Below are positions 3,774-47,098 of a stretch of 64,000 bases of DNA, one piece after another (position 1 is the stretch's first letter; each line of letters starts with the position of its first letter). The notes below the pieces were generated by a model. The model was not told the DNA's origin. It saw only the letters and a list, made by a program, of their open reading frames with translations, and did no database searches. A program made the position numbers and the translations under genes. This DNA is from Deltaproteobacteria bacterium. Its GTDB lineage: Bacteria > Myxococcota_A > UBA9160 > UBA6930. The stretch is taken from NCBI GenBank assembly GCA_029261795.1, contig JAJDAP010000064.1, positions 3,420 to 67,419 on the forward strand. The letters are read 5' to 3'.

Positions 3774-4819
3774 ATGTCGCGCGTCCTGGGTGCTGCCCTG
3801 CACGGGGTAGATGGTGTTCCGATCGAAGTCGAGGTCCGCCTCTCTTCCCAGCTTCCACGGGTGGATATCGTTGGGCTTCCCGAGGCGGCCGTTCGCGAGA
3901 GCGGGGCGCGCGTTCGGTCGGCGATCGGGGCCGTCGGGCAACCGTTTCCAGATCGGCGGATCACGGTAAATCTTGCCCCCGCGGGGATTCGGAAGTCCGG
4001 CGCAGGGCTGGATCTGCCCATCGCGATCGGAATCCTGGCGGCGGGAGGCGCCATCGAGCCGGAGGCCCTGACGGGACTCGGGCTGGTCGGCGAACTGGCC
4101 CTCGACGGGCGCCTACGCCCGGTCCGGGGTGCCCTTCCCCTGGTCCTCGCCCTGAAGGAAGCCGGCTGCCAGCGGATCATCGCCGCCACCGGCAACGAAG
4201 CCGAGCTGGCGCTCGCGCCGGGACAACCGGTGTTGATCGCAAGCGATCTGGTGCAGGTGCTCGCTGCGTTGATCGCCGGGCACGAGCTTCCGCGCGCAGA
4301 GCTTGCAACCCCAGCGGACATGCCGGCCTCGAACGGACCGGACCTCGCCACCGTGCGCGGCCAGCAAGGCCCGAAGCGAGCGCTCGAAATTGCCGCAGCC
4401 GGTGGACACGGGTTGCTGCTCCGCGGCGCGCCGGGCTCCGGCAAGACACTGCTTGCCCGCGTGCTGCCGAGCCTGCTGCCGCCCCTCTCTCGAGCCGAGG
4501 CACTCGAAACGACCCGTATCTGGAGTGCGGCCGGCAGCCTGGCGCCGCAGACACCGTTCGTTCGAGCCCGCCCCTTCCGCGCGCCCCACCATTCCGCCAC
4601 ACGCGCAGGCTTGTTAGGTGGCGGTACGCCTCCGCGCCCGGGCGAAGTCTCCTTGGCCCACAACGGTGTGCTCTTCCTCGACGAGCTCCCCGAGTTCGAA
4701 CGCGGCGCCCTCGAAGCGCTGCGTCAGATCCTCGAAGACGGCGAGATCGTCCTGGCGCGCGCCGCTACGCGTTTCTCCTTCCCGGCGCGGTTCCAGTGGA
4801 TCGCGGCGGCGAACCCATG
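3774..4819 (+). pseudogene. comM: comM/YifB Mg-chelatase-like ATPase, 5' part, interrupted at attL
   Basis: [52 protein letters not shown]; similarity stops at AANPC. Confidence 0.95.
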
Positions 4820-6349
4820 TTTGTGTGTTGCCTTGTTGCCACGATCTTCTGAGCTCTGCTCAGGGGGTCGTGGCTCGGTTGGTGGGCGTGGGGGCTCGTA
4901 GTAGAGCTGGATCTCGATGTCTCCGTCTCCCACTTCGATTCGCTCTACGATGGTTTCCGCAATCTCTCGCTTCTCCTCGAAAGCGAGTTCTGACCACCTC
5001 CCGTAGAGGTCCTGAGCCTCGCGTACGATCTCGTCGCTCGAGGCCCAGTGGATGCGCATCGCGTCCACCTGGCCTTTGAGTGTGGGGATCTCCTCGTCGA
5101 GTTGGCGACGTCGGGCTGTGAGTGGATCGTTCCGATCTCCGAAGCCGTCGGCGTCGATCCGACCCTTGATATAGAGGTCGTAGACCTGGTCCATCTCGGC
5201 CTGGACGCTGGCGTGTTCCTTCTCCAGGACCCGGATCTGCTCTTCTTTCACCTGAAGATCTGACTCGGTCTCTGCGAGCGCTGCAGCCACATCCTCGGGC
5301 GAAAGGAAGAAGCTGTGGAGTTGTTCTTGGAAGATCGCTTCCAGATCCCCCTCGGGGATCTTGTTGCGGCACTTGCCACAGATGTACTTGGGGCTGTTCG
5401 AAGGCACGTACATCTTCCCGCCGCAGCTGCAGAAAGCGAGCCCCGAGAACAGATGGACGGTTCGCCTCGCTGGCTTCCGGCCCCTGCGCTGCTCCTGGAG
5501 AATTGCGTTGGCTTCGTTCCAGAGTTCCTCTGAGACGATGGGCTCGATCTGATGCCAGACCCAATCCTTCTCGGGCTTGAGGCTCCAGGCCTTGCCGCTG
5601 CCTTCGCTCTTCGTGTAGTTGGCGCGTCTCCAGCCCTTGGCCGTGGGGTCTTCGAGGATGCGGCCGACCGTGCTGTCCGAGAACGGCTTCCCCCGCTTCG
5701 TCCTATATCCCCGCTCGTTCAGGATTCGCGCAACGCGTTTCTTCCGCTTCTCCTTCACGTACAGCTCGTAGATGAGGCGCCGCACCGGCGCTTCATCCTC
5801 GTCCGGGACCAGCTGACGATTCACCCACTGGTACCCGAAGGGCGCGCTTCCACCCAAGGGCTTGCCCAGCTGAGCCCGAATCGGAACGGAGGCCGCGACG
5901 CGCTCGGCGATTTCCTCCCGTTCCCACTCAGCCATCGCCGCGATCAGGGTGTAGAAGAAGCGACCGGCGGGCGTGCTCGTGTCGATGGACTCGTGGAGGC
6001 TGACGAGATCCGCTCCGCATTCGCGAAAGATGTCGGCAAAGTCCAAGAGTTCACGGGTGTTTCGAGCCAACCGAGCCAGCTTCGAGAAGATGAGCGCTTG
6101 GACTCTGCCGGAGTGAATGTCACCGAGCATCCGCTTCGCCTCTGGGTGCTCCATCACGCTCTTTCCGGAAACCCCCGACAGGTCGTAGAGTTCAACGACC
6201 TCCCACTCCTTGATCTGGGCGTAGGCTCGGGCGCGTCGCTCGTGGTGCTCGGGGCTCTCGCCGCGGGCTTGGTCCTCCGTCGAGACACGGATCCAGATCG
6301 CGACTCGCTTTGTATCCGGTTGTCCAGGCATCCTGACCCTTTCTATCAC
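4724..6349 (-). CDS. Large serine recombinase LSR1 (resolvase + recombinase + Zn ribbon/coiled coil); C-terminus reads through attL
   Basis: WIRVST catalytic Ser motif, SG, RLARN, PFGY, CSCG..CGKC, coiled coil; likely ATG at 6331. Confidence 0.95.
4803..4844. repeat. attL: comM arm + CCATG core + element arm GTTGCCTTGTTGCCA
   Basis: 4827-4841 is the inverted copy (1 mismatch) of TGGCAAGAAGGCAAC found at each attR. Confidence 0.85.
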
Positions 6350-6524
6350 ACGAAGAACTATGACTCTGCAGGACCGCCATCCCCGAGGGAATGGGCTAGA
6401 ACTTCGGACGTGATAAGTCGTAGGCAGCGATGGACGGACGCCCGGCTCTAGGGCGCGTTGTCCAGAATAGTGAGCAGCCCTCCGACATACTTTTCGCTAA
6501 CACTTTAATCGCGAGTAGCCGCTC

Positions 6525-6746
6525 GTGAGCCCGGTGAAGCCGCGAAAGCGCGCTCCGCAGATGGGTCGGCCCCCGCTCCCTCCGGAGGAGCGCCGAGACC
6601 ACCACGTTCGCCTCATGCTCCGCGAAGAGGACTACCGGGCACTTGAGGAAGTCGCCCGGGATCGAGATATCCGCGTCGCGACCGCAGCCTACGAGCTTCT
6701 TCGAGAAGCACTCGACGGGAAGAGCCGACGAGGCCGCCGCCGTTAG
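6525..6746 (+). CDS. Small ribbon-helix-helix/CopG-like DNA-binding protein
   Basis: GRPP..VRLML.EEDYRALEEVA pattern; divergent from LSR1. Confidence 0.55.
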   Translation: MSPVKPRKRAPQMGRPPLPPEERRDHHVRLMLREEDYRALEEVARDRDIRVATAAYELLREALDGKSRRGRRR

Positions 6747-6818
6747 GCCGGCTGGCTGGCCCTGCGAGGCTGGTACCAGCCTCTGAGTTAGCCTCGAATC
6801 GAGGCGACTGGAGGCGAG

Positions 6819-7085
6819 ATGAAGCGAGCGCGTTTCACGGAAGAGCAGATCATCGGGATTCTGAAGGCGGCGGAAGCGGCGGGGAACATTCGGGCCGTGT
6901 GTCAGGAGCACAATCTGTCGGAACAGACGTTCTATCGGTGGCGGCGGAAGTACGGCGGGATGGACGTGTCGGAGGCCCGGAAGCTTCGTGAGCTCGAGCG
7001 CGAGAACTCGGAGCTGAAGAAGATGGTGGCCGAGCTCTCGCTGGACAATCGGATGCTGAAGGAAGTGAACTCAAAAAAATGGTGA
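6819..7085 (+). CDS. IS3 transposase OrfA
   Basis: MKRARFTEEQIIGIL..TFYRWRRKYGG HTH; A-run then TGG at the OrfA/OrfB overlap, consistent with a -1 frameshift. Confidence 0.93.
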   Translation: MKRARFTEEQIIGILKAAEAAGNIRAVCQEHNLSEQTFYRWRRKYGGMDVSEARKLRELERENSELKKMVAELSLDNRMLKEVNSKKW

Positions 7086-7924: not shown

Positions 7925-7985
7925 GGGTCAGGCGCAAAACCCTAACCTTGAGGCTGGTACCGAAATCTTGGGCTTGCCACGGCGC

Positions 7986-8195
7986 CTAGCCAGTAAGCAT
8001 GATCGTCGTCCCGCACGTGTCGCATGTATAGTTCTTTGCGCGCTTGCTGAAGAACGTGATGTAGAGCCAGATCACGGCCCAGAATCCAAAGGTCATGACC
8101 GAGAGGATTCCGTGAAGCCAGTGGTTCACGCCGCCCCCTGAGAATACGCTCTGCTCATTGCAACTCGGGCAATGTGACTTCTTCTGGACGCGCAT
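7986..8195 (-). CDS. Small membrane protein with two CxxC pairs
   Basis: CPSC, hydrophobic segment, CDTCG; RBS-like GGAGG upstream. Confidence 0.55.
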   Translation of the reverse strand: MRVQKKSHCPSCNEQSVFSGGGVNHWLHGILSVMTFGFWAVIWLYITFFSKRAKNYTCDTCGTTIMLTG

Positions 8196-8265
8196 CGAAC
8201 ACCCTCCTGTTCTCTAGAGTCTGGCGAGTATATACTTTTAAGTTAGTGATATCTATCTAACTCGC

Positions 8266-9783: not shown

Positions 9784-10278
9784 CTAGAGATGGGCCCTGT
9801 AGTAAGTGAACGCGAGCGCGGCGGCCTCGAAGATTCGCATTCGGCGGTCGTCACCCATCCAGGGCTTCCGCTTTCTCGGTAGCCGCGGCCGGAGTTCGGG
9901 CAGCTCTTCCGCAATGGCACTAGCGATCCCGTGCCGTGTCGAAGCTTCAAACGATTCGAAGCCACTCCGAACGGAGGAATCCTCTACCCGCTGAACCTTC
10001 ACACCCGAACTGCGAGCGAGGAGTGCAAAGAGCCGAAGCCTTCTGGCTGCCATTGCCGATCGACGTGCGTCGACCTCTGACGGGAGCACAAGGACTGCAG
10101 GGCGGTAGAAATGAAGAAGGTCCCGGAGTTCCGCAAGAAATGAGCGCTTCTTGCGTGGACCGAAGCCCCGTGTGCCCCAATCGATGGGGGACGCGGGCCC
10201 TTCGGCGACAAAGAATCCCCACCCGGAGCCGGTTGCCGAGATCGCCAGGACTCGGACGCCTGGTCCTGGACTACTCAT
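9784..10278 (-). CDS. RuvC/RNase H-fold-like protein
   Basis: RVLAI.....G.G N-terminal strand and final 'FEAAALA' helix; acidic catalytic residues not obvious. Confidence 0.45.
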   Translation of the reverse strand: MSSPGPGVRVLAISATGSGWGFFVAEGPASPIDWGTRGFGPRKKRSFLAELRDLLHFYRPAVLVLPSEVDARRSAMAARRLRLFALLARSSGVKVQRVEDSSVRSGFESFEASTRHGIASAIAEELPELRPRLPRKRKPWMGDDRRMRIFEAAALAFTYYRAHL

Positions 10279-10625
10279 TTGGGCCGCCGGACACCAACCC
10301 TCGTCGCGGCTCGAAGCAGCATCTGGAGCTTCCGGTCGAGCTCCTCTGATCGCGGCCGGCGCTGGAGCACGCGATACATGTACATGAGACGGTCCATGAG
10401 ATCACGCTCTTGCCTTGAGTAGAACTCCGGGAATAGGTCGCGCCCTTGGACGCCAAACATCATCTCGGTCGTTGCCACGAGCCTCAGATTGGGAGGTCGG
10501 CGATTGCGTTCGACACGAGAAATCTCGGACGGGTCGATGGGCCCAAGGAGGAAGCCGAGTTCGTCTTGCGTTAGGCCAGCGCGTCGCCGGTGCGCTCGCA
10601 AGTACGTTGGTAGTGGAGTGTGCAT
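10275..10625 (-). CDS. XRE-family HTH regulator
   Basis: LRAHRRRAGLTQDELGFLLG..ISRVERNRRPP. Confidence 0.85.
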   Translation of the reverse strand: MHTPLPTYLRAHRRRAGLTQDELGFLLGPIDPSEISRVERNRRPPNLRLVATTEMMFGVQGRDLFPEFYSRQERDLMDRLMYMYRVLQRRPRSEELDRKLQMLLRAATRVGVRRPK

Positions 10626-11713: not shown

Positions 11714-13423
11714 ATGTGGCTACGAGAACTGCAGATAAGCAACTTCCGAAAGATCGACGAGCTCAATGTTACTTTTCCTCGTGGGCTCACTGTGCTGGTC
11801 GGAGAGAACAACTCGGGCAAGACAGCGATCGTCGATGCGCTGCGTCTCCTGTTGTACTCGAGTCGCGATTTCGATTCTCTTCGGCTGACGGAAGGTGATT
11901 TCCGCGCCGGCACGGACTACGCACCGATCGAGATCTCCTGCCGGTTCACCGGTCTCACAGACATCGACGAGGTTTACTTTCAGGAGTGTCTCGTTGACGT
12001 TGGGGATGGCAGGTTTGAGATACAGGTAAATGCCCGCGTCGAGTTCAACAAGACCACGAACCGCTGCAACGTGAAGCTGTGGGGCGGCGAGACAGAGGGT
12101 GCCGCGCTCCCGGTGAATCACTACGACCGCCTTGCGACAGTATATCTGCAACCACTCCGTGATCCCGAACGCGGACTGCGGCCCGGTCAGTACTCTCAGG
12201 TTTCCCGCCTTGTTGCCTGCCTCACTTCGGACGATCAGCATGCTGACTTCGAGGCGATCGCTACCGAAGCCAATACGAAGCTTCGTGACCTGCCGCCCGT
12301 CAAACGTGCCCGAGGTGACATCAACGCACAGATGGCGGCTATCGCAGGCGATGAGCTCACCCAAAGCACAGAGCTGATATTCGCTGACCCGTCGTTTCGG
12401 CGAATCGTCGCAGGGCTGCAGCCCGAGATCGATGGGCTCCCATTCGCCCTCAATGGACTGGGCTACAACAACCTGATCTTTACTTCCGCGACATTGGGGA
12501 CGCTCCGACGGAGCGCCCAATTTTCGTTTCGCTCAATCCTCGTCGAGGAGCCCGAAGCCCATCTCCATCCACAACTACAAGTGCTCCTACTCAAGCACTT
12601 CGCAAACGTGGCTGTAGATCAAGAGGGCCACGAGGTTCAAGTCATCGCCAGTAGCCACTCACCCATCCTGGCAAGTCAGGCCCCGATTGATTCGGTCGTG
12701 TCCGTGCACGAGGTTGAGGGCAAGGTCAGCGCCGTGTCGGTCTGCACAATCGAGATTGAGGACAAGATCAAGAAGAAGCTCCAGCGTTTTCTCGACGCCA
12801 CTCGTGGCGAGCTGTTCTTCGCTCGGCGCATCCTCATGGTAGAGGGAATCGCGGAGGCACTTCTGCTGCCCGTGCTTGCGAGGATTGCAGGCGGTAGCTT
12901 GAAGGACTCGGCGGTCACCGTGCTCAATGCGGATGGAATCAACTTCAACGCATTCCTACCGCTCTTCGGATTGAATCGGATTGGCGTGCCTGTAGTCATC
13001 CTCACGGATGGTGACGCGCATGAGCCTGGCGGGGAGAGGTCCGCAACTGCCGCGGGTTTGAAGGCGAAGGAAGCCGAACTATCCAACCTGCGCATCGAAA
13101 TGTCCGAACTCACGTTCGAACACGAGCTGAGCCGATCTGATGCGATCCTTCCTTACATGATATCTGCCTTCAAGGAGATCCATCCCATAAAGGGGGCCAC
13201 CCTCGAAGCCGACCTCGCAGCTCTTGGCTCCGCAGAAGAGAAGGCCCAGGAGTTCCTGGGAGTGTTTCTTGATATGCGGGTTTCGAAGGGTCGATTCGCT
13301 CAAGAACTTGCGGGCATCCTGGAAGAGCAGAAGCTATCGGGTGAAGCAGTGCCGATGTACATCCGCAATGCCCTTGCATACTTGGGTGTCATCTCCCAGG
13401 AGGCGGATGGTGGGCACAATTGA
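11714..13423 (+). CDS. gajA: OLD-family ATPase/TOPRIM nuclease (GajA-like)
   Basis: GENNSGKT, GLGYNN, VEEPEAHLHP, SHSP, VEGIAE, TDGD, SKGRFAQ. Confidence 0.85.
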   Translation: MWLRELQISNFRKIDELNVTFPRGLTVLVGENNSGKTAIVDALRLLLYSSRDFDSLRLTEGDFRAGTDYAPIEISCRFTGLTDIDEVYFQECLVDVGDGRFEIQVNARVEFNKTTNRCNVKLWGGETEGAALPVNHYDRLATVYLQPLRDPERGLRPGQYSQVSRLVACLTSDDQHADFEAIATEANTKLRDLPPVKRARGDINAQMAAIAGDELTQSTELIFADPSFRRIVAGLQPEIDGLPFALNGLGYNNLIFTSATLGTLRRSAQFSFRSILVEEPEAHLHPQLQVLLLKHFANVAVDQEGHEVQVIASSHSPILASQAPIDSVVSVHEVEGKVSAVSVCTIEIEDKIKKKLQRFLDATRGELFFARRILMVEGIAEALLLPVLARIAGGSLKDSAVTVLNADGINFNAFLPLFGLNRIGVPVVILTDGDAHEPGGERSATAAGLKAKEAELSNLRIEMSELTFEHELSRSDAILPYMISAFKEIHPIKGATLEADLAALGSAEEKAQEFLGVFLDMRVSKGRFAQELAGILEEQKLSGEAVPMYIRNALAYLGVISQEADGGHN

Positions 13424-15155
13424 ACAACTTCGAGAGGCGATTCTCTCCGAGAACCCAACAGACCAACAGCGGGCGGCGATCTTTTCCGAGGAACTAGAGT
13501 TTCTTCTGCGAGCGGCGCCTGGAAGCGGGAAGACGTGGACATCGTGCCGGCGATTCATATGGAGGGGAGCGAACTGGCCTCATCTAGTCGGCGGACTCGC
13601 CCTTCTGTCGTTCACGAATGTCGCAATCCGCGAATTTGGCATGGCCACGATCAAGGTGGGACGGCGCGATCTCTTGTTCGATCCCAACTACGTCGGCACG
13701 TTCGACTCTTTCGTTGAGCGCTACATCCTCGGCCCTTTCGGTCATCTGATAAACGGCCTAGAGAAGCGACCGAGGCTCTTCCCGGGGCCTCGGCCCAGCG
13801 ATTGGCACGACAAGAAGCTCACAACTTGGAGAGATGGCACGAGCAAGAAGAGGATTCCGGTGCGCGCATGGGAAGTCATTCCCTACCCAGATGGCACCAG
13901 GGTCCGATTCAAGACGCAAGGCGGCAATGAGGTTTCCGGCGGACCCGCCGTCGAAGCGCTCCTGCGGCGCGGGTTCTACACCCATGCCCAGCGCGTGTAC
14001 TGGGCATGCAAGCTCTTAGTCGATAGGCCTCACATTGCGAGGGTACTCGCAAGGCGGTTTCCCGAGATAATCGTCGATGAGGCGCAAGACACTAATGCGT
14101 GGCTTCTGATCCTCTTGAACATGTTGAGAGACAAGGGAACGAAGATCACACTCGTCGGCGACCCGGACCAGTGTATCTACGAGTTCAGCATGGCAGATGC
14201 CGCTTCTCTATCGAATCTCAGAGAGAGGTGGTCCATCGAGGAGAGGCACCTAGACGAGTCGTTTCGTTGCAACAATCAAATCGCCAGCGCTGTCCGAAGC
14301 CTCGGCGGCAATCCTGGATTCACTGGATGTGGCGACGCCATGAATGAACGGCATGGTGCATTCGTTGTAAGGGATGTCTCCAAGACATTTGCAGATGGGG
14401 TAGCCACTCTTCAAACGCTCGCTAGGCAGGCAAGCTTGAACCCGGCATCGGCCGCGATCGTGTGCAGAGGCCGCGGACAGCTCGATTCGATTCGAGGCAA
14501 GGTGAACTACGACAAACTTCAGGGCAAAACTAAGGAGCTGGCGATCGCTGCATTCCAGCGAGATACGCGTCACGACTATAGGGGAGCCTTCAAGGTGGTT
14601 TCGAGAGTTGTCCGCGATCTCACGGGTGACGATCCATTGTGGGAGCGAAGCGACGAGGCACCGCACACACCCGAAGCTATGGCAGTGGCGCTGTCGATCT
14701 GGCAATTCACGAAGGATCCGGATCGGCTCCCTCCCGTGTCCCAGATTGGCAAGGAGTGGATCGCTTCTGTGCGCGAGCACCTGGCGACGCTGATCAATGA
14801 AATCGGGCTGAAGTGCGACGCAAAGCTTGGGCACCACATCAGGAAGACGGGACTCGCGGATGATCAGATGGCGCTTCCACTCTTCGATGCGCACAACGCA
14901 TTTCCAGCGGCGCGTCAGGACACAATTCATCAAGTGAAAGGTGAGAGCATCGACGCCGTGCTCGTGATCGGAAGCTCGCAATTCTGGAACTCCGTGGTCA
15001 AGGCGGTGGGGGACGGAAACAGCTCGGAAGATAGACGTCTCGCATATGTAGCAATGACTCGAGCTCGCCATCTACTCCTAGTCGCGCTGCCGCACGGACA
15101 CTTCGACAAACATTCCGACACGTGGGTGGAGTGGGGTTTCCGGGTGGCCTCATAG
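13407..15155 (+). CDS. gajB: UvrD-like helicase (GajB-like)
   Basis: AAPGSGKT, DEAQD, GDPDQCIY, TIHQVKG, YVAMTRAR; ATG 13407 with GGAGG overlapping the upstream stop. Confidence 0.85.
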   Translation: MVGTIEQLREAILSENPTDQQRAAIFSEELEFLLRAAPGSGKTWTSCRRFIWRGANWPHLVGGLALLSFTNVAIREFGMATIKVGRRDLLFDPNYVGTFDSFVERYILGPFGHLINGLEKRPRLFPGPRPSDWHDKKLTTWRDGTSKKRIPVRAWEVIPYPDGTRVRFKTQGGNEVSGGPAVEALLRRGFYTHAQRVYWACKLLVDRPHIARVLARRFPEIIVDEAQDTNAWLLILLNMLRDKGTKITLVGDPDQCIYEFSMADAASLSNLRERWSIEERHLDESFRCNNQIASAVRSLGGNPGFTGCGDAMNERHGAFVVRDVSKTFADGVATLQTLARQASLNPASAAIVCRGRGQLDSIRGKVNYDKLQGKTKELAIAAFQRDTRHDYRGAFKVVSRVVRDLTGDDPLWERSDEAPHTPEAMAVALSIWQFTKDPDRLPPVSQIGKEWIASVREHLATLINEIGLKCDAKLGHHIRKTGLADDQMALPLFDAHNAFPAARQDTIHQVKGESIDAVLVIGSSQFWNSVVKAVGDGNSSEDRRLAYVAMTRARHLLLVALPHGHFDKHSDTWVEWGFRVAS

Positions 15156-15368
15156 CGCATGCATACGGTTGGTGTGCCGCGATCCGAGTGTGGTGCCGAG
15201 ACGTTCTTCCGGTGTCCGCATTGCGTGGGGCTTCTGCCCGTCTTCAATCAGGTGCCGAGATTCTGCGTGCGGGAAGGCGTCCCCTGGAATCGGGAGCCTC
15301 ACTCGTCGAGCGAGCTGTCCTCGGTGCCTACCTCGGCACCCTCCGTTCCGACTGGCGCAGTGCGTACC

Positions 15369-15549
15369 TGAGCTGACACCCAACTTAGGTCCGTTGGGAG
15401 TGAGAGATTCTCCGGTTAAGCGGCTTGCTGTGCGTACTCCTCGGGGGTGAGATTGCCGAGTGAGCTGTGCGGACTGACCTGGTTGTAGTCGATCCGCCAG
15501 GCGCCGAGCGCCCGGCAGGCATCGGCCACACGACGACCCGCCTCGGCCT
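15369..15549 (-). pseudogene. IS3-family remnant (transposase 3' end and terminal IR)
   Basis: WRIDYNQVSPHSSLGNLTPEEYAQQAA* followed by IR TGAGCTGACACCC. Confidence 0.7.
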
Positions 15550-19772: not shown

Positions 19773-21329
19773 ATGCGCTACTTCGCATATTGCCGGAAAT
19801 CCACCGAGTCGGAGGACCGGCAGACACAATCGATCGAATCGCAGCGACAGGAGCTGGTCGCGTATGCACAGAAGGAAGAACTCACCATCGTCCGCTTCTT
19901 CGAGGAGGCGAAGAGTGCGAAGCAACCAGGGCGTCCAATCTTTCGACAGATGATGGACGCCCTTTCTCGTGGCGAGGCAGATGGAATCGTTGCTTGGCAC
20001 CCTGACCGCTTGGCCCGAAATTCAGTCGATGGGGGTGAGATCATCTACTGGTTGGACACGGGGAAGATCAAGGATCTTGCCTTCCCGACCGCTCAATTCG
20101 ACAACTCACCGCAGGGTCGATTCATGCTGGCCATTTCCTTTGGCCAGTCCAAGTACTATGTCGACAATCTCTCGCAGAACGTCCGCCGCGGATGCCGGAC
20201 GAAGGCGAGCAAGGGTTGGCGACCGACGGGAGTACCGGTCGGCTACCTGAATGATCCCGTCACCAAAGAGACGGTGGCTGACCCAGAACGATTCGCCTTG
20301 GTTCGTCGGCTCTGGGATGACCTTCTCGCTGGAGATTCAATCAGTGACATCCACGCGCGGGCCCGTGACGTCTATGGCCTTCGTACCCGAAAGAGACGAA
20401 GGCTCGGCGGTGGCCCGCTCTCGCTCGGCACTGTCTATAAGATATTCGGGAACCCCTTCTACATGGGAGTCTTCACCTGGGAGGGGAAACAGCACCAGGG
20501 GAAGCACCCAGCAATGGTTACGCGGTCCGAGTTTGCCCGAGCCCGGGAGGTCATCGGAAGGAAGGGAAAGCCGCAGCCGCATCGTCACGCGTTCACCTAC
20601 AGAGGCCTCATTCGCTGCGGGGCATGCGGTTCGGCGGTGACCTGCGAGCGGACTCGCAACCCCTATGGCATGGAGTACATCTACTACCACTGCACGTGGA
20701 AGAACGTTAGTCCTCGCTGTCGAGAGCGTTCGATTGAGGAACGGCAGGTGGACTCTCAGTTCCTCAGCTTTTTGAAGGCTCTTTCTCTGACAGAATCGCT
20801 CCGCCAGTGGGGATCCTTGGCACTCCGAAAGTTCGCGGACAAAGAGCGAGATGGAAGGACACTTGAGATCAGAGCTCAAGAGAAAGCAAGGGCAGCGACA
20901 GAAGCCCAGCTCTCCCGACTCACCGACCTTCACATTCGGGGGATGATAGACGAGGACGAGTTTGCGAAAAAGCGAAACCCGCTTCTCATCACTCGGGAAG
21001 CGCTGGCAGCTCGACAAGATCGCGGATCTGTGGCGCAAGAGTTCGAACTCTTGATTGCGACCTTTTGGCTGCGTAGCAGAGCCGTTTCTCTCTTCGAGAA
21101 GGGTGACGAAGCTACGAAGCGACTTCTCATTCAATTGGTGAGTTCGAACATTCTCTTGAAGTCGAAAATGTTGCGCATTGAGGCCGCGAAACCACTGACG
21201 CTCGACTTGAAATCGAGGTCACTTTCAACAGTGTGCACATCTTTAGAGGCTGTTAGAACTTTTTTGAGGAGTGAGGAGGGTAGGAAATTCCATTCCCAGC
21301 TGAAGGAGCTGCATCGACTAGCCCAATGA
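19773..21329 (+). CDS. Large serine recombinase LSR2
   Basis: YCRKST, DRLARN, PVGY, CGACG..YYHC, coiled coil. Confidence 0.95.
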   Translation: MRYFAYCRKSTESEDRQTQSIESQRQELVAYAQKEELTIVRFFEEAKSAKQPGRPIFRQMMDALSRGEADGIVAWHPDRLARNSVDGGEIIYWLDTGKIKDLAFPTAQFDNSPQGRFMLAISFGQSKYYVDNLSQNVRRGCRTKASKGWRPTGVPVGYLNDPVTKETVADPERFALVRRLWDDLLAGDSISDIHARARDVYGLRTRKRRRLGGGPLSLGTVYKIFGNPFYMGVFTWEGKQHQGKHPAMVTRSEFARAREVIGRKGKPQPHRHAFTYRGLIRCGACGSAVTCERTRNPYGMEYIYYHCTWKNVSPRCRERSIEERQVDSQFLSFLKALSLTESLRQWGSLALRKFADKERDGRTLEIRAQEKARAATEAQLSRLTDLHIRGMIDEDEFAKKRNPLLITREALAARQDRGSVAQEFELLIATFWLRSRAVSLFEKGDEATKRLLIQLVSSNILLKSKMLRIEAAKPLTLDLKSRSLSTVCTSLEAVRTFLRSEEGRKFHSQLKELHRLAQ

Positions 21330-31072: not shown

Positions 31073-31076
31073 CCCC

Positions 31077-38611: not shown

Positions 38612-38900
38612 AGAATTCCTTTCGTTAGTAGGCCAGCAACAACCTAGCATCTCCAGCTGTCCACGGATCACAGAAACAATGGCGAGAGGTACGCGGGGTG
38701 CAGAACTTCACGACCCCAGTCGACCCAAATGGGGTGCAATAAGATTCACTCACTTGTATCCGTATCGCCGTCTGCATAGCGTGCGATATGTCGAATAGCA
38801 GCCATAGAGTTCCAGCCGATCGATGTCGGCGTAGAGCTTGGCGAGCCGGTCGCGGACCGTGTCATCGGCGATCAGATCCGAAGGAGCTTCGCAGCCGACG

Positions 38901-38965
38901 TGACCTGACACCCAACGTAGGGCCGTTGGAAGTGAGAGATTCGTGCCCCTTGGGCGTCAGGAGCC
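38901..38965 (-). repeat. IS3-like terminal remnant
   Basis: TGACCTGACACCCAACGTAGGGCCGTTGGAAGTGAGAGATTC, similar to 15369-15410. Confidence 0.6.
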
Positions 38966-39628
38966 TCAGTGGTTCTTGCGTCGCTGCTCGTCGTGTGGGC
39001 GATCCGGGAAGCAACCTGCAATTCTCTCGTGAGCCGAGTTCGAGGGGATATTGTGTCCCAGCTCCCAAGACCGAACTGTATTCGTGTGGACGCCCAGCAG
39101 GAGACCAAGGTCTCGCTGCGAGAGACCCTTGGCGAGTCGAGCTGCTCGTAGACGCTCCCCAAAGGAATCCCCGGAATCAGGCTCAGCGGGTATTCCCAAG
39201 AACCTCCTGAGACGAGCCTCCGAAAGTGGCGTTGGCTTCCTTCGGCCCGATTCCCAAGCCTGCCAGCTAGACTCGTCCACCCCTGCTTCGTCGGCTGCCT
39301 TCTCCTGAGAGAATCCTCGCAGTTGTCGGAAACTGGCCATGTGCTCCTTGAGCGTCTCACACTCTCGCTTCGGGCCTGGGTCGTAACCGAGGTAGTCGAC
39401 CGTCCGCCCACGTAGACCGATGGGTGGCACGGTCCGGTTCTTCTCCCAGTTGAGAATCGTCCAAGGACTCACCCCTAGTTTCTTCCCGAGATCCCCGTGG
39501 GTGAGACGCTCTTCGAGCCGCTTGGCCTTGATGTGATCTCCGAAGGTCTGAGGGCCATCCGGAAAGGGACCCGGAATCGGGCACTTACGGCTGACCCGCC
39601 TCGATGGCAAGAAGGCAACGCATCCATG
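38966..39628 (-). CDS. Triple XRE-HTH module, copy A, open from the att core
   Basis: Three cro/C1-type HTH repeats; frame begins HGCVAFLPSRR at the core; no conserved ATG. Confidence 0.8.
   Translation of the reverse strand, partial: HGCVAFLPSRRVSRKCPIPGPFPDGPQTFGDHIKAKRLEERLTHGDLGKKLGVSPWTILNWEKNRTVPPIGLRGRTVDYLGYDPGPKRECETLKEHMASFRQLRGFSQEKAADEAGVDESSWQAWESGRRKPTPLSEARLRRFLGIPAEPDSGDSFGERLRAARLAKGLSQRDLGLLLGVHTNTVRSWELGHNIPSNSAHERIAGCFPDRPHDEQRRKNH
39601..39628. repeat. attR-like site 1 (not followed by comM)
   Basis: TCGATGGCAAGAAGGCAACGCATCCATG, identical to 47071-47098; identity stops right after CCATG. Confidence 0.85.
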
Positions 39629-40320
39629 AGAACCTGCGAGGTGGAAGAACTGGAAGCGGGCGGGGATCCACGCCGCTCATTGTTAGGTCGATTCGAACTC
39701 GCGCTTCGGGCAACTGAGGTGGCGATCAAGGTACGCAGTACCTCACGCGGGCCACGGCCGGGTAGTTCGAAGACGGAGTCCCATTTGGATGTTTGGCGCT
39801 AGCGACTGCTACGCAGAAAGTACCTCCGCATCGAAACTAGGTCCTCTGCGTCGAGTTGAGCGCACAGACCCAAATGCTAGGGCGCTCAATGCCCATGCGC
39901 AGGGCCGGTGGAAACCGGTTCGAGAGGCGCCGCATCGCGAGGAGTTGTCGAAGTCTCTTCGGACTGGAGCTGCCGGCTCTCCCTCGGTTGAAGTCCCTCT
40001 GATTGTGGCAGGCCCAGGTTCGCCGACTCGATCTACGCAGCGGGCCGCCGTGCCAACCACGCCTCCTGTTCTGGACGATCAACGTGATGACTACGCCCGC
40101 TCGCTCCGCCAGTGACCCGAGCTCCGAAACCCGATCCCGATCTCAGCGGTCCAGCCCAATGGTGCGCCGCAGCGCGGATGCGCGCCGCCCGCGAAAACTC
40201 CTAGCCCAAATGGGTCAGAAGCTGTGCCCGGCTAGCTCTCCGCGAATTGCGCCGATCATTGAGCTACTCCGAGGTCGGGCGCCATGTTAGGGTCACGCCA
40301 ACCGATTTGGAGGCCTGTCG

Positions 40321-43119
40321 ATGAGTCGAACTCGGATCGCCGCAGCCGTTGCTGTCATCACGCTCGTGGCAGCAGTACCCGGATATGGAAGTCCCCGATC
40401 GGAGATCGATGAATCCGATTCAGTCGTTTCGGCGATTTGGTTCGAGCCGAACCATGGGCAGGCTCCAGCATCTACCCGATTCATCGCGCGTACGGGGCAG
40501 GTCCAGTATCACTTCTCGGAGGCCGGTCCCGTGATCCTGGCCTGGGATCCGTCGACGGAAGAGTTCCGGCCGATCACCCTTGAGTTCGCAGGGGCGAACT
40601 CGCCAGCTGCTGTCAACTCCAGCGACAAGCGGGACGGCGCCAGCAACTACTACGGCTTGGGTAGTCGAGGTGGAATCCTTGGCGTGCCTCACTACGGCCG
40701 CGTGCGTTACGAGAGCCTACTCCCTGGAATCGCCGCTTCCTTCTACGGAGCCGGAGCCGACCTGGAGTACGACCTGGAGCTCGAACCGGGAGTCGATGTG
40801 AGAGCGGTCCGGCTCCGCTTCGCGGGCGCCGATGCGACGCAGCTCGTTGGCGACCATGTGGTCGTTCGAACAGGAGGGGTGGAGCTCACGCAGAAGGCGC
40901 CGGTCGTCTATCAAGTCGACAGCCATGGTATGAGGTCGCAGGTCGCCGCCGGCTATTCCCTTCGAGACGGATGGCTCTCCTTTGAGGTCGACGCCCAGGC
41001 AATCGACGAAACGAAGCGGCTCGTGATCGACCCGGTGATCGAGTTCTCTCAATATCTAGGCAGCAGCGACAAACATGACACCCCCGCGCACCCAGGACTT
41101 GAGGTGGACGGCGATGGCAACGCGTTCGTACTCGGATACACCAAATCCACCAACTACATTCCGATCACTGGAGGTTCGACCCTCGCTGGCGCGCTGGACA
41201 TCGTCCTGACGAAGGTAAGACCAGATGGCTCGATCGCGTACTCCACCTACATCGGTGGGCCGGCGGACGATGCGGGTCATGCCCTTACGACGGACTCGCT
41301 CGGGAACGCCTACCTGACCGGATTCACCAAGTCGTCCACAGGCTTCCCTCACGATTACGATCTGCGTTCTACAGCGGCGTGCACCCGGCCCGGCGGCTGC
41401 AATCCGGCTGACCTCTACATGACGAAGCTGGACCCATCGGGCGTGATCGTGTTGTCGACGCTCATGGGCGGGGCGGATCGCGAAGAGGGCCAAGGAATCG
41501 TCATCGGGCCGGGTGGAGATATCTTCCTCACCGGAATCACAACCTCGGTCGACTTGCCGACTGGCAGTCCGTCCGGAAGTCCCTACCAGGATGTGTCTTT
41601 GGCGGGGTTCACCGGCGCCGGCTTCGTCATCAGGCTATCCGCGGGCGGTGATCAGCTCGTGTACTCGACGTATCTCTCCGGCAGTGGCGTGACGGTCGGA
41701 ACAGGGATCGCCGTCGATCCAGCTGGGAACGCGTTCGTGGCTGGGCAGACATTCGCAGCTGACTTCGTCGCCGGCGTGACCGCTCCGTCACCACTTCAGG
41801 CATCGTACGGCGGAGAAGGCGACGCGTTCGTGACTGGCCTCAACGCGACGGGGTCCGCGCTCATCTTCTCGACCTTCTGGGGCGGCGCTGGCCACGACTC
41901 CGCAAGGGACGTTGTCCTCGATTCGTCGGGGAACGTTGTCGTGGTAGGAGAAACGAAGTCAGCACTGCTGCCCCAACGAGACGCGGTGAAGACGCTCACG
42001 CCGGCGGAAATCCTGCCCAATGACCGCATTCCCCAGGACGGTTGGGTCACGGTCTTCTTGCCGGACGGAACCGACTATCTTACGTCAAGCTTCATCGGGG
42101 GAGCCAAGTCGGAGTGGATCTATGCGGTCGACGCGGACGCCTCGGGCAACCTCTACCTGGGGGGACAAACCTCGTCCACGAACTTCCCCGATCCGAGTAC
42201 AAATTTTCCGGTCGTCGATCAGATTCCAGGATCCTCTGCAACCACCCAGGAGAATGCGGAAGCGTTTGCAGTCAAGCTCGGCCCCCTTGGGAAGTCGGTG
42301 GTGTACGCGACACTGATCGGCGGAAGCCTCGGAGAGATCGGGCTTGGGATCGCGTCCAATGACGCCGGCTCGACGTGGCTCTCCGGCACTACCGCATCGC
42401 CCGATTTCCCAGGTGCCGTGACGGCGTGCCAGGGGGCGTGTCAGGGTCTCTCTGACATCTTTGTCGTAAAGATCGCTGACGGCGGCGCGCCGGACATCTT
42501 TGTTGCGCCCGATCCCGTCGATTTTGGCTCCGTCGCCCTCCCGGGCTCCTCGGACCTACTCCTCACGATCTCCAACCTTGGCCCGTTGGATCTCGAGATT
42601 ACTGACATCCAGCTCAACGACTTGACCAACGCGTTCTCGATCTCAGGGGCCACGGCAGCGACGATTCCACCGGATGGCTCCATTGACATCTCTCTGACCT
42701 TCGCCCCGACCAGCTTCACTCCATTCAGCGGAATCGTGACTATCGCTAGCGACGATCCCGATGAGAGTCTGCTCTCGATCGTGTTGTTCGGGACCGGCGC
42801 CGGGTCGGAGGACCCGCCACTCGACCAGATCGCGACGATCCTCGACTTCATTGACAGCTCGGTGGTTGACGGATCGCTCCAAGGCTCCGGGCCGAACTCA
42901 AATTCCGCTGCCAACCGCTTGGCCGCGCTGATCAATCAGATCGAAGCCGCCGGGGATCTGATCTCAGCTGGGATGACAGCCGAAGGCTGCGATCAACTGG
43001 TCGATGTTCTCAACAGGACCGATGGTGTACATCCACCACCTGACTTCGTCGGGGGCGATGCTGCCACCGTGCTGTTCCTGCTGGTCGACAATCTGATTGT
43101 TCAGGAGTGCTCACCATAA
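40321..43119 (+). CDS. Secreted SBBP-type beta-propeller protein with Ig-like and helical C-terminal domains
   Basis: Signal peptide; FEPNHGQ, LVIDP, repeated YSTYxGG / DxxGNAYxTG; PDIxV..DFG..SDDPDE domain. Confidence 0.85.
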   Translation: MSRTRIAAAVAVITLVAAVPGYGSPRSEIDESDSVVSAIWFEPNHGQAPASTRFIARTGQVQYHFSEAGPVILAWDPSTEEFRPITLEFAGANSPAAVNSSDKRDGASNYYGLGSRGGILGVPHYGRVRYESLLPGIAASFYGAGADLEYDLELEPGVDVRAVRLRFAGADATQLVGDHVVVRTGGVELTQKAPVVYQVDSHGMRSQVAAGYSLRDGWLSFEVDAQAIDETKRLVIDPVIEFSQYLGSSDKHDTPAHPGLEVDGDGNAFVLGYTKSTNYIPITGGSTLAGALDIVLTKVRPDGSIAYSTYIGGPADDAGHALTTDSLGNAYLTGFTKSSTGFPHDYDLRSTAACTRPGGCNPADLYMTKLDPSGVIVLSTLMGGADREEGQGIVIGPGGDIFLTGITTSVDLPTGSPSGSPYQDVSLAGFTGAGFVIRLSAGGDQLVYSTYLSGSGVTVGTGIAVDPAGNAFVAGQTFAADFVAGVTAPSPLQASYGGEGDAFVTGLNATGSALIFSTFWGGAGHDSARDVVLDSSGNVVVVGETKSALLPQRDAVKTLTPAEILPNDRIPQDGWVTVFLPDGTDYLTSSFIGGAKSEWIYAVDADASGNLYLGGQTSSTNFPDPSTNFPVVDQIPGSSATTQENAEAFAVKLGPLGKSVVYATLIGGSLGEIGLGIASNDAGSTWLSGTTASPDFPGAVTACQGACQGLSDIFVVKIADGGAPDIFVAPDPVDFGSVALPGSSDLLLTISNLGPLDLEITDIQLNDLTNAFSISGATAATIPPDGSIDISLTFAPTSFTPFSGIVTIASDDPDESLLSIVLFGTGAGSEDPPLDQIATILDFIDSSVVDGSLQGSGPNSNSAANRLAALINQIEAAGDLISAGMTAEGCDQLVDVLNRTDGVHPPPDFVGGDAATVLFLLVDNLIVQECSP

Positions 43120-43239
43120 TCAACAGCAGCGTTCCAGTCATTGCAACTCCCTTCGCCGGTAGCGTCCCCAAGTTCGGCCACGGGCGAGACGTTAGGGAGG
43201 CCTAAGTGAAGATGACAGTCTGCTTCGCCAGACTAACGC

Positions 43240-43324
43240 TCGCTGTGCCCGAGGAGTACGCGCACCAAGCCGCTTAACCGGAGAATCTCTCATTTCGAAT
43301 GACCCTACGTTGGGGGTCAGGTCC
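43240..43324 (+). repeat. IS3-like terminal remnant, inverted relative to the 15369 copy
   Basis: PEEYAHQAA* followed by CCGGAGAATCTCTCA...GTTGGGGGTCAGG. Confidence 0.65.
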
Positions 43325-43752
43325 GTCAGTCCGCGTCGTCGCTCGGTGCACGAAGCGAGAGGTTGCAGCCAGCGCTGACTCGTGGGAACCAGAGTAGGCA
43401 GCGGTGGCGAGCGGAGGCTTTGCGATGGTCGGGTGGTTAGTTCAGGTGAGGATGGCGACGTGCTCCGCCTGGCGCTCGACGAACTCGCGGCAGAGACCGA
43501 AGGGAAGCCGCCGCAACCTCGAGGTGCTGTGGTGCTTGTCCGCCTCAAGCGGGGGTTCCTCGACCAGAGGAAAGAGGTGCCGTGGGCCAAGAGCAAGGCG
43601 GGAGGACGCGTACTTTAGTCCTAGGTGGACAGGGTCTTCGTCCCGAGGTCCACTCGAGCACCCATCGGGTGCATCCGCGGCACCGACGAACGCGAGGCGA
43701 TCCTCCCGATACGGTGTGAACTCTTTCACACTGTTCCGCAGCCCGCGGTCGT

Positions 43753-45690
43753 ATGCTGGTTGATTCGGAGGAATGGCACATGGACCTGTCGATTCGTATC
43801 TCAACGCACTTCCGTCCGCTGCAGTTGGCTGAGGGGGTCGCGCTGGCGGTGGCGCTAGCCTCGGCGGCAGTTCTCTTCGGCGAGCTCCCGGCTTCCGCGG
43901 CCCCGATCGATTTCGTGCGCGTCGTAGATACGAACACAACGATCCCAGGCACAAGCGGGACGTTCAATCTCTTCGGAGGCCCCACGATTAGCAACACCTC
44001 CTCCGATGTGATCGGCTTCGAGGGTGCGGGCTCAACGACCAATGGCGTCTACCGTTCAGATGCGGGAGTGACTACCACGATCGTGGACTCCAACGACCAG
44101 ATCCCGGGAGGAACCCACAAATTTGCCGTTCACGGAGCTGGACCGTGGATCGATGGACCGGACTCCGTTTTCGCCGGAAGGGATCGGGTGGTGGGTCCGA
44201 CCGACGCCGGAATTTTCGCTGTCACGAACGGCACACTGTCAGCGGTGGTTCTCGCGACTGACACGACGCCTGCGGGCAGCCCGTACATCGGTTTCGTGGA
44301 CCGACCCTCCCTCGATGGCGGGCTCGTCGTCTTCGGGGCGACCTCGGGAAGTCCAGGGAACCCAGATCCCGGGATCTATGGCGCGACGGCAGGGCAGCCA
44401 AACTCTGTGTTCTTGGTCGCTGATGAGGGGACCGACATTCCCGATGGTAGTGGCAACAAGTACTTGGAATTCTCGTTGCGTCCGGTCGGCGCCGACAACA
44501 CCATTGCATTCCGTGGGCTCGGTCCCATGAGTGATGGCGTCTACACCTACGACGTGCCATCGGCCGAGCTGAGTATCGTGGCCGACACGGCCACTCCGGT
44601 TCCGGACGCGTACGGGTCCGACGGAATGGACACATTCGCCGCGTTCGGACAAGCCACGACCGACGCTGGCGACGTGGTGTTCATCGCTTCGGCACCAACC
44701 GGGGGACCCGGAATCTACGCGAAGATAGACGGCACGCTCAGACTCGTGGTGGACACCAACACCAAGGTTCCGGGCGGCGTTCCAACCACAACCTTCCTCA
44801 ACCTAGACAGCGGCCTCTTCGCGATCGATGACGGCGAAGTCCTGTTCCTCGCCAACGACACCAGCGGCGGGCGGGCCGCCTACCTGTACCGAAATCGGAA
44901 GATAGCTCGGGTCCTCGGAGTGGGCGATTTCCTCGACGGCGAGTTCGTTCTCGACATGGTCGTTCGCCCTGGGGGGCTCCGGGAGTCGACGGCCGCGGTG
45001 AGGGTGACGTTCGCGAGCTCGACAGCAATCTATCTCGTCACCGTCCCAAATCCAGAACCAGATATTGTCGTGTCACCCTTCTCACTTGACTTCGGAGACG
45101 TGGAACTTCCGGGTTCGAATGCGCTCATGGTGTCGATCTCGAATGTTGGAGCGCTGGATCTCGAGGTGATGAATATCGACTTCCAGATGGGGAGTAGTGG
45201 AGCATTCGCGTCCACCTCCGTGCCCAGCCCGGTCGTGGTACTAGCGCCAGGAGCATCCGCCGACGTTGGAATCACCTTCACACCAACCACCCTTGGCGTG
45301 TTCTCTGGCACTCTAGAGATCGGCAGCGATGACCCGGACGAAAGTCTTGTCGTAGTGGATCTCGTCGGGACCGGTGTGGTGTCCGATGACCCGCCCTCAC
45401 AGCAAATCATGGACATCCTGAACTTCATCGACGATTCGGTTGCGGCAGGAACACTTGAGGGGAGCGGTCCCGGTAGTTCCGGTACGGGTCGCCTGAACGC
45501 ACTGAAGAACCAAATTGAGGCCGCGGGCGATCTCTTCGGCGATGGACTCGTCGCCGAAGGCTGTGATCAGCTTCTGGATGCGCTGGAACGCACAGACGGG
45601 GAGTTTCCACCGCCGGACTTTGTTGAGGGACATGTCGCCGCCGAGCTGGAGTTGCTGATCGAGATTCTTCTCGACCAGGAATGCAGTTGA
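43753..45690 (+). CDS. Secreted repeat (propeller-like) protein with the same C-terminal module as 40321-43119
   Basis: Signal peptide; repeated (V/I)(V/A)DTxTxIP..GIY units; shared ~200-aa tail. Confidence 0.8.
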   Translation: MLVDSEEWHMDLSIRISTHFRPLQLAEGVALAVALASAAVLFGELPASAAPIDFVRVVDTNTTIPGTSGTFNLFGGPTISNTSSDVIGFEGAGSTTNGVYRSDAGVTTTIVDSNDQIPGGTHKFAVHGAGPWIDGPDSVFAGRDRVVGPTDAGIFAVTNGTLSAVVLATDTTPAGSPYIGFVDRPSLDGGLVVFGATSGSPGNPDPGIYGATAGQPNSVFLVADEGTDIPDGSGNKYLEFSLRPVGADNTIAFRGLGPMSDGVYTYDVPSAELSIVADTATPVPDAYGSDGMDTFAAFGQATTDAGDVVFIASAPTGGPGIYAKIDGTLRLVVDTNTKVPGGVPTTTFLNLDSGLFAIDDGEVLFLANDTSGGRAAYLYRNRKIARVLGVGDFLDGEFVLDMVVRPGGLRESTAAVRVTFASSTAIYLVTVPNPEPDIVVSPFSLDFGDVELPGSNALMVSISNVGALDLEVMNIDFQMGSSGAFASTSVPSPVVVLAPGASADVGITFTPTTLGVFSGTLEIGSDDPDESLVVVDLVGTGVVSDDPPSQQIMDILNFIDDSVAAGTLEGSGPGSSGTGRLNALKNQIEAAGDLFGDGLVAEGCDQLLDALERTDGEFPPPDFVEGHVAAELELLIEILLDQECS

Positions 45691-46456
45691 GACCGTCGTC
45701 CCCAGCCCCGCATGGCCATATTTCACTTTCAGCCAATCAGACCGGTCCACCCGTCGTCGCCGCAACGCGAAAGAGTTCCGAGACTTCACGTGCTGGAAAG
45801 CCGTAGCCGAGGGGCTCGCAAGGGGTCTCGGCAAGCTTGAGTGTGGTCTCTAGCGATGTTAGTCCAGAAACATTCGAAGCCGCCTCAAACCAACGCCTCT
45901 GAGTGTCTAGGAAACTGGGGGAAGTCCACTGAGGGTCTGCCCCTGTCCACGACAGCAAGGAAGTCATCCTCAGCTGGCTTCCGCGGACGCTGGATCCGGC
46001 GATATCCAGCTCCCGTCAGGAAACGCGTTCAAGCTTCCAACGGACCGGATCGCCTCTCTCGGATTTGGGGATTCAAAGACCTGCCTTCCCCTCCAGGTGT
46101 CGGACTGTCTTGCGACCATCGGTCGAGTCGTAGTGACTGATTGCAAGAACCCCGCATCCCACCGGGCTGCGCAGTTTCAACCCGTGCTGCAGAGCTTGTT
46201 CGAGTGTCGGAGTGGAGACGGTTTCCCGTTTGCCATCGGGCCGCTCTCGTGGCAGCCGCACGCGTTCGGAGCCCTATCAGGTTTGGGGTTCCCGCCCGGG
46301 AGGTGATCTCTGGAACTGCGGGTCGGAATAGCAGTAGGTGAGAAGTACCTCGGCTGCGTGAGGTCTCATGCAGCCGTCGGACCATTGCCCGGCCCGACGG
46401 CGGACACGATCACGGTCTGGCGAGTACGGGATACGTAGGTACGGTCGGAGTCTCCA

Positions 46457-47098
46457 TCAAGGCGCGTCCAGCTCCGGAAAGAGACCGACGAGCTGTCGAA
46501 GACGAATGGTGGACGGCTCATGGCGACCGGCCTCCCAGGCACAGACTTGGGTCGCTTGCGCTTCGAGAATCAGTCCTACTTCCTTTTGCGTAAGCCCCGC
46601 CGCGAGGCGAGCCGCCCGAAGCTGAGCTGAAAAAGACCCAGCTGGATCTGGAGTCGCCGGGAGACCAAGGAACGCCCTGAGTCGAGCGTCCGAGAGTGGC
46701 ATTGGCTTCTTCCGCCCTGACTCCCATGACTGCCAGGTTGTTTCGTCGATCCCGGCCTGGAGGGCCGCCTTTTCCTGAGACAGCCCACCCATCCGTCGAT
46801 ACTCCGCCATGTGCTCTGCGAGAGTTTCTGATTGCGACATTTGCTCAGGGTCGAAGCCGAGGAGGGCGACTATCCGCCCGTAGAAGTCGATCCGTGGTCT
46901 GGAATTTCCGTTCTCCCAGTTCAGAACAGTCCATTGATTCACGCCCAGCTTCTTCCCAAGCTGGGCGTGAGTGAGCCCCTCTTCCAGCCGCTTCATCTTG
47001 ATGTGATCGCCAAAGCTTTGGGGGCCATCCGGAAAGGGACCGGGAATCAAGCACTTACGGCTCACACGTCTCGATGGCAAGAAGGCAACGCATCCATG
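46457..47098 (-). CDS. Triple XRE-HTH module, copy B, open from the att core
   Basis: Paralog of 38966-39628; ORF-track residues upstream of HGCVAF are antisense comM. Confidence 0.8.
   Translation of the reverse strand, partial: HGCVAFLPSRRVSRKCLIPGPFPDGPQSFGDHIKMKRLEEGLTHAQLGKKLGVNQWTVLNWENGNSRPRIDFYGRIVALLGFDPEQMSQSETLAEHMAEYRRMGGLSQEKAALQAGIDETTWQSWESGRKKPMPLSDARLRAFLGLPATPDPAGSFSAQLRAARLAAGLTQKEVGLILEAQATQVCAWEAGRHEPSTIRLRQLVGLFPELDAP

Follow-up and report, generated by a model that had tools for sequence, protein, structure and literature searches.

The window analysed here is a stretch of 64,000 nucleotides (nt) from a Deltaproteobacteria bacterium (GCA_029261795.1, contig JAJDAP010000064.1, positions 3,420-67,419), and all coordinates below refer to it. 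It contains a genomic island inserted in comM, which carries at one end the gene of a large serine recombinase (LSR), here called LSR1, and at the other a frame with helix-turn-helix (HTH) domains. Open reading frames (ORFs) and Pfam matches show that comM is split by the island from 4819 to 47098, with 42,279 bp between the crossovers. The 5' part of the gene (3774-4819, plus strand; ORF and Pfam), with the ChlI and Mg_chelatase AAA domains, ends at the crossover TG (4818-4819) inside the Cys codon of ..AANPC, and the 3' part, copy A, with the 3' end typical of the lineage (47099-47570, plus strand), holds Mg_chelatase_C (Pfam 1e-25, in 47187-47570). Joining both halves in script yields a 505-aa ComM ORF that reads ..AANPCKCG.. 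and has its domains in order (PF13541 and PF01078 in 3774-4901, PF13335 in 47187-47570). The island body (4820-47096) has a lower GC, 0.55-0.61 vs 0.62-0.67 in the flanks.

On the comM 5' side of the island lies the LSR1 ORF of 541 aa (6349-4724, minus strand). About 511 aa correspond to the recombinase proper (4817-6349, minus strand), which comprises a catalytic resolvase domain, a recombinase domain, a zinc-ribbon/coiled-coil region and a Pro-rich tail ending in ..GNKATHKH. Pfam matches were found for Resolvase (PF00239, 2.9e-31, residues 17-155) and Recombinase (PF07508, 2.6e-21), and also for Zn_ribbon_recom (PF13408, 2.6e-4), the last with 21.7 bits, under the cut-off of 25.3. A PHROG match identifies it as an integrase (1.9e-119), and the ..IRVSTEDQ.. 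motif of the serine recombinase catalytic domain is invariant in a 51-row alignment. Judged by these matches, LSR1 is a large serine recombinase with its complete catalytic domains on one side of the cut. It is a single-copy gene in its own genome and was not found in the 40 relatives searched. As the original prediction stated, LSR1 has no stop codon before the crossover: it reads ..GNKATHK-H-G across the core, with the CAT codon at 4819-4817, and continues into 30 residues of antisense comM (4724-4816, minus strand), the host-encoded tail of the integrated form, before it stops.

At the other end, a frame with three HTH_3/HTH_31 stretches (47155-46457, minus strand) is open from the core in the same phase as LSR1, the CAT at 47098-47096 being followed by GCVAFLPS... 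Counted from the core, this HTH module 1 has 213 aa (46457-47098, minus strand) and consists of a linker and three Cro/C1-type HTH domains, with the P' arm of the att site in its first ~9 codons. An internal copy, HTH module 2 (38966-39628, minus strand), has 61% aa identity to module 1 and an identical P' arm and core. Both full copies contain three HTH stretches (HTH_31 1.6e-24, HTH_3 1.4e-25, Pfam), and PDB profile matches of the HTH domains include P22 C2, the 434 repressor, HipB, SinR and an ICEBs1 Xre regulator. Joining the cores in script reproduced the expected single ORF, of 723 aa with the copy at 47098 and of 730 aa with that at 39628, with zero internal stops. To the left of module 2 there is neither a comM nor an LSR end, and this module is probably left over from a tandem or accreted island that has lost its LSR.

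The recombination site itself can be placed precisely. In attL (4793-4845, minus strand) the P arm, made of the last LSR1 codons, is followed by the crossover CA (4819-4818) and a comM arm, and in attR (47071-47124, minus strand) the comM 3' arm is followed by the CA at 47098-47097 and the P' arm. On the minus strand this CA corresponds to the TG of the Cys codon in the ComM ..NPC.. motif. When attL and attR pairs from 23 genomes are aligned, the CA is all that they invariably share, and its place in comM does not vary. The rebuilt attP forms an imperfect inverted repeat about the CA of the minus strand (17 of 26 symmetric positions in the window), and over 24 pairings its arms reach a mean of 15.4 complementary positions out of 26 vs 5.3 for the host arms. 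In this sense, the putative attP is built as would be expected for a serine integrase that uses a 2-bp crossover.

A search with the LSR1 protein gave 5430 matches, and the C-termini of the best 120 were classified. Most of them run into antisense comM, 77 in one phase (..GF[IM]AA..) and 31 in a second one (..[RK][GD]S[SWY]..PPA), with tails very variable in length; one (P0052) runs into sense comM, with Mg_chelatase_C, and seven have other C-termini. The remaining four (P0080, P0084, P0117 and P0120) are natural LSR-HTH fusions that show the junction predicted from the window, ..KAT...H and then RVAFLP... Read-through of the core thus occurs in at least 113 of the 120 best homologues, and no stop before the core was seen among these best 120 of 5430. 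We also scanned genomes, one per species, and obtained 75 LSR loci (40-58% identity), mostly from Bacteroidota, Acidobacteriota and Proteobacteria. Five of these loci contain fused LSR-HTH ORFs, so that free fusion genes, whose existence the original prediction had raised as a question, occur among both proteins and loci. The same five genomes carry stand-alone HTH modules as well, and some of them also unfused LSRs. In one genome (G004) a single contig has the order HTH, LSR-HTH, LSR, with comM 3' adjoining the first and comM 5' the last, an arrangement that reads as two tandem islands with the fused gene at an internal attP-like junction.

Among the relatives, the backbone directly upstream of the LSR encodes a ~122-aa HTH protein, a ~174-aa protein and a ~635-aa HerA/TrwB-like P-loop ATPase (26 loci; L005-L079). 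The window homologues of this backbone are displaced (9805-10625, minus strand; 29077-30123 and 32256-33995, plus strand), and the ATPase genes lie on the other strand.

Whether the LSR and HTH frames match can be read against comM, whose frame is continuous across attB: a fusion is in frame only if the phases of the LSR at attL and of the HTH at attR, both relative to comM, agree. An HTH profile was used to search 50 LSR-bearing genomes and found the module in 40; 47 places were examined in addition to eight examined earlier. For 23 genomes, that of the window among them, the two island ends could each be positioned on antisense comM, which gives 24 pairings. The phases agree in all 24, and each rebuilt attP is open from the LSR into the HTH profile match. 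An island with inverted orientation (L009/L178) is also in frame, bringing the count to 25 of 25 attL/attR pairings in 24 genomes; the frame across att is thus not random among homologous elements. The set excludes the 10 of 50 genomes without an HTH match, 25 of 56 HTH loci without a recognisable comM flank, five comM-flanked HTH loci without a comM-flanked LSR partner in the set of loci covered (L080, L083, L084, L150 and L152), three LSR loci without a usable partner (L010, L023 and L074), and Acidobacteriota relatives with other target genes (tails such as ..KGPPIP..), in which the crossover cannot be fixed without attB. Three more pairs (L006/L193, L037/L194 and L039/L171) are in phase by eye. 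The only out-of-phase junction seen belongs to the third HTH copy of the window, a fragment of the first ~60 codons (58173-58360, minus strand) that has one extra T and abuts a second comM 3' part, copy B.

The agreement holds across different frames. The junction falls after x.7 in three genomes, where the CA occupies codon positions 1-2 (the clade of the window; two Caulobacter genomes are likewise by eye), after x.3 in 19 genomes of a large Bacteroidota clade, where the A is codon position 1, and after x.0 in one Chitinophagaceae genome, where the CA occupies codon positions 2-3. The inverted element constitutes a further class, with a central TG on the LSR strand and arms symmetric at 17 of 26 positions. 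Neither the crossover CA nor its 5-nt spacing to the half-site motif varies in any of them, but this DNA is read in all three frames. A shift of frame calls for matching alterations, one 5' of the P arm and the other 3' of the P' arm, which independent genes would not need, and the frame shared by LSR and HTH across the classes thus points to selection for the fusion.

The inverted subclade presents an observation of its own. In G010 (L009/L178, with protein P0052) the orientation of the island within comM is reversed, the LSR strand has TG at the centre, and every frame coincides with that of comM itself. The frame of the LSR continues into the ComM C-terminal domain, and that of comM 5' into the HTH module, the latter being open over about 490-504 aa. 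Integration in this subclade would yield two reciprocal chimeric ORFs.

The natural fusion P0084 was modelled with AlphaFold2 (40-row alignment, mean pLDDT 82.7), which indicates what the att DNA would encode. The LSR domains are modelled with confidence to about residue 497, with beta strands at 318-345 and long helices at 364-467, and two HTH domains follow from residue 545 onward with pLDDT >90. Residues 498-527 have pLDDT <50, and the att-encoded motif starts at residue 510, so the att DNA probably encodes a Pro-rich, disordered linker, which would explain why the same att DNA can be read in any frame. A predicted complex between LSR1 residues 150-510 and the HTH module scored 0.07 and 0.08 (mark 0.32), values that count neither for nor against binding. 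The two full HTH copies of the window differ with a dN/dS of 0.21 overall, and in linker codons 8-33 we counted 8.5 synonymous and 2.5 non-synonymous differences (dN/dS 0.06). This low value argues that the region between the P' arm and the first HTH is translated.

We therefore consider it highly probable, from the comparison of sequences, that the att site lies in a selected LSR-HTH ORF. The proposed element is a comM-targeting island in which the gene of the large serine recombinase would span its own attP. On the excised circle, or at a tandem junction, one ORF would encode a complete LSR, a flexible att-encoded linker and two or three Cro/C1-type HTH domains, and recombination at the CA dinucleotide would cut this ORF inside the linker. 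The integrated island would keep a catalytically complete LSR with a short host-encoded tail, and the HTH frame would be left 42 kb away, facing antisense comM, where it would lack both the promoter of the LSR and a conserved start. The HTH part may be a sequence-specific DNA-binding regulator produced exclusively or chiefly in the excised or tandem state, and the protein would in this way report the recombination state. The structural side of this proposal, a short LSR beside a severed HTH frame lacking a start when integrated and one LSR-HTH protein in the circle or in a tandem, had largely been put forward in the original prediction and gains support from core read-through, natural fusions, tandem arrays and matching phase. 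The whole statement, including a state-specific role, seems to us probable, though at a clearly lower level than the selected ORF.

As for that role, a circle-specific transcriptional regulator or autoregulator of island genes would be the leading candidate, with a chance somewhat short of even. Direct modulation of the direction of recombination, which the engineered integrase-RDF fusions (RDF, recombination directionality factor) discussed below make a real alternative, appears unlikely, extra DNA binding near att may be a little less likely still, and what is left falls to the absence of any state-specific role. A broader form of the idea, in which an att site in a linker-coding stretch would act as a protein-domain switch, is one that we hold only tentatively: each event would swap the C-terminal module of the recombinase, a host-encoded stub when integrated and a Cro/C1 HTH array when excised or in tandem, and the two proteoforms would differ in direction or regulation and provide a built-in memory without a classical separate RDF.

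Several points weigh against this interpretation. The attP junction, the circle, the transcript and the fusion protein of this island were not observed, and its fused form is known from in-script joins. Four runs of one biofilm study carry the locus, and in their Logan contigs over 39000-58900 there was no joint linking the att core elsewhere, a result that is silent on excision since contigs drop rare variants. The gene is not always split either: at two loci (L060 and L065) the LSR-HTH gene is complete, has a stop codon of its own and lies about 230 nt away from the core on the comM 5' side, and at a third (L073) the LSR stops by itself 307 nt short of comM. The split at att is thus common, not universal. 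Also, 19 of the 24 matched genomes come from one Bacteroidota clade, and the independent support rests on three to four classes of frame or orientation. A separate HTH protein would be possible in the window by way of a TTG inside the P' arm of both full copies, and in the six of 24 relatives with an ATG at the junction. The function is inferred throughout. Finally, the island looks worn and may no longer move, with an IS3 next to the LSR promoter region, an IS66, displaced backbone genes, a second unrelated LSR and an internal HTH copy.

The three loci just mentioned share a layout (L060:4380-5160, L065:3430-4215, L073:2960-3360) in which the gene is followed by about 230-300 nt ending in a ~35-nt remnant like antisense comM 3', then by the core and comM 5'. 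Attachment-like sites of the attP and attB kind would lie here a few hundred bases apart, which may be the product of an attLxattR exchange with another copy.

Among the alternative explanations, the one that survives best is that of a natural fusion of an integrase with a directionality factor, in which the HTH would act on the LSR in an RDF-like or anti-RDF manner and the two proteoforms would catalyse opposite reactions. Engineered C-terminal integrase-RDF fusions (phiC31, Bxb1, Nm60 and others) change the action of LSRs, switching them to attLxattR and blocking attPxattB (PMC12286644). The fusion point is the same, the LSR C-terminus by way of a flexible linker, no separate RDF was identified in the island, and in the account given there no sequence signature defines RDFs (PMC12286644). 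However, these constructs are man-made, their partner is a known RDF and not a Cro/C1 HTH array, and the fusion is uncoupled from the recombination state. Moreover, an RDF present in the circle would favour excision when integration is needed, so that the logic fits only an inhibitor of excision, and the module has an ordinary Cro/C1-type DNA-binding fold. We regard this explanation as unlikely.

Slightly less likely is that two independent genes abut at attP. The LSR would then end at whatever stop comes next, the HTH would be translated separately, initiating within or close to the P' arm, and the shared frame would be an accident of descent, frozen since indels are barred by the att-arm spacing and by both coding regions. 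This explanation would draw on the TTG that both full window copies have six codons into the module, on the ATG exactly at the junction of the six relatives, on the many database gene calls of stand-alone HTH proteins of 130-230 aa, and on the weight of the single clade. What speaks against it is that the same att DNA is read in three frames and in inverted polarity with LSR and HTH shifted together each time, and that the integrated HTH frame faces antisense comM without the LSR promoter. Nor is a start conserved: at the would-be start the copies read IKMKR, IKAKR and IKVKR, as originally noted, with no conserved ATG, and in HTH module 2 the 16 open codons upstream contain no in-frame start, while the first HTH is preceded by neither ATG nor GTG, only by the TTG at codon 6 after the core. 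Over 24 attR loci an in-frame ATG occurs anywhere in 15 and is absent from nine. The claim that the HTH frame lacks a start of its own in the integrated state holds, then, in so far as no start is conserved, but not for the relatives with a junction ATG, where it could be translated separately.

A decayed or mis-assembled locus, in which LSR1 lost its stop by mutation or the contig is chimeric and the frames match by chance, could appeal to the insertion sequence (IS) elements, the frameshifted third HTH copy and an assembly in 139 contigs, but is very improbable given the read-through of the core in the homologues, the 25 pairings in phase and the contigs of three runs, which span 39000-58900 and agree at the junction without differences.

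That an att site may lie inside a gene, so that recombination rewrites the product, is a known idea. In phage Mx8 (intP/intX), attP lies in the 3' part of the integrase gene and integration changes the C-terminus; this is a tyrosine integrase with a swap of tails, and no folded DNA-binding module is gained or lost, unlike in the LSR-HTH gene. In the mycobacteriophages BPs and Brujita, attP is inside the repressor gene and integration rewrites the product and sets the switch. There the integrase is again of the tyrosine type, and repressor and integrase are separate genes, whereas here a regulator-like module would be part of the recombinase ORF. The SSV-type 'suicidal' tyrosine integrases of archaeal viruses and plasmids (SSV1, pTN3 and pT26-2) also have their att site inside the integrase ORF, like LSR1, and their gene is partitioned on integration (PMC8371274). 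This review frames the intact SSV-type gene as a kind of directionality factor and places self-disrupting recombinases only in archaea (PMC8371274). However, in the SSV type an archaeal tyrosine recombinase is itself cut and thought to be inactivated, whereas here the serine recombinase stays whole and only the appended HTH would be detached. A bacterial case is described for the RAP44-like prophages of Riemerella, in which attP is inside the integrase gene and the gene is divided on integration (PMC12169736). As portrayed there, this is a tyrosine integrase (XerD-type) with a tRNA-Ser target, cut at gene nucleotides 25-43 with no exchange of domains, unlike LSR1 (PMC12169736). A literature search, in which subscription journals for the most part and supplements were outside the coverage, found no serine-recombinase ORF crossing attP, no LSR-HTH split gene and no comM-targeting LSR islands. 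By comparison with these systems, what appears new is the class of enzyme and the swap of a folded accessory module while the enzyme stays whole.

The region beyond attR holds a second comM 3' part, copy B (58362-58844, plus strand), foreign or old and with an open frame, which matches copy A at 99% identity over its first ~140-150 nt and at ~71% thereafter. Copy A has 57-64% identity to the comM of four of five relatives and 48% to the fifth, and copy B has 46-48% to the two of the five in which it matched. Copy B sits 11.3 kb downstream of copy A and is preceded by the frameshifted HTH fragment and an att core (47087-47239 vs 58350-58502). The segment 47099-58360 resembles a unit that has a comM 3' piece at one end and an HTH/P' arm at the other. 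In one of the four runs (X4) there is almost no depth on 39000-46967 and about 9x on 47210-58160, and one 4592-nt contig stops matching exactly at 58355, in the core, and continues for 4444 nt outside the compared stretch. This pattern hints at a coexisting strain without the island, possibly with an empty comM, and at a recent gain or loss.

With regard to the distribution of the HTH module, a metagenome scan with module 1 yielded nothing beyond generic Xre-type HTH genes (23-48% identity), all of them lacking an upstream LSR, and a tblastn search against plasmids and phages did not find the family at that sensitivity, giving only partial matches of 29-31% to a Prescottella equi plasmid regulator and one Streptococcus phage repressor. 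Its nearest relatives include P0122, P0124, P0130 and P0138, with five to 17 tandem Cro/C1 HTH units and up to 4162 aa, which may be real poly-HTH proteins or the read-through of stacked att-end modules.

The cargo of the island comprises, by Pfam, IS3 and IS66 elements, an SMC-like gene, two HerA/TrwB-like ATPases, a DNA methylase and large secreted repeat proteins. At 11714-15155 an OLD-family nuclease (AAA_15 and an OLD-like TOPRIM) is followed by a UvrD-type helicase, a pair that we take to be typical of the Gabija anti-phage system. A second LSR of 518 aa (19773-21329, plus strand; Resolvase, Recombinase and Zn_ribbon_recom), unrelated to LSR1 by tblastn, may mark a nested element, and a ribonucleotide reductase large-subunit gene lies at 25940-28228 (minus strand; barrel domain 1e-114). 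A ~45-nt motif occurs three times with ~89% identity (15366-15410, 38898-38942 and, inverted, 43248-43292), one copy just downstream of HTH module 2, and contigs of two runs break there.

To our knowledge, how elements with serine integrases decide whether to integrate or excise has been worked out in just a few phages, and we know of no directionality factor found for most such elements. The island described here would be the first bacterial serine-recombinase counterpart of the archaeal integrases with att in their own gene. Encoding an att site in any of three frames within a disordered linker may also be useful for recombination-switchable fusion proteins, and the split gene would explain the erratic ends and starts of LSR and HTH gene calls in databases. 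This family of LSRs is common in Proteobacteria, Bacteroidota and Acidobacteriota, and disrupts a gene of natural transformation. Furthermore, if the fusion operates as proposed, the ComM(N)-HTH and LSR-ComM(C) chimeras of the inverted subclade would wire the regulator of the island to the competence promoter of the host.

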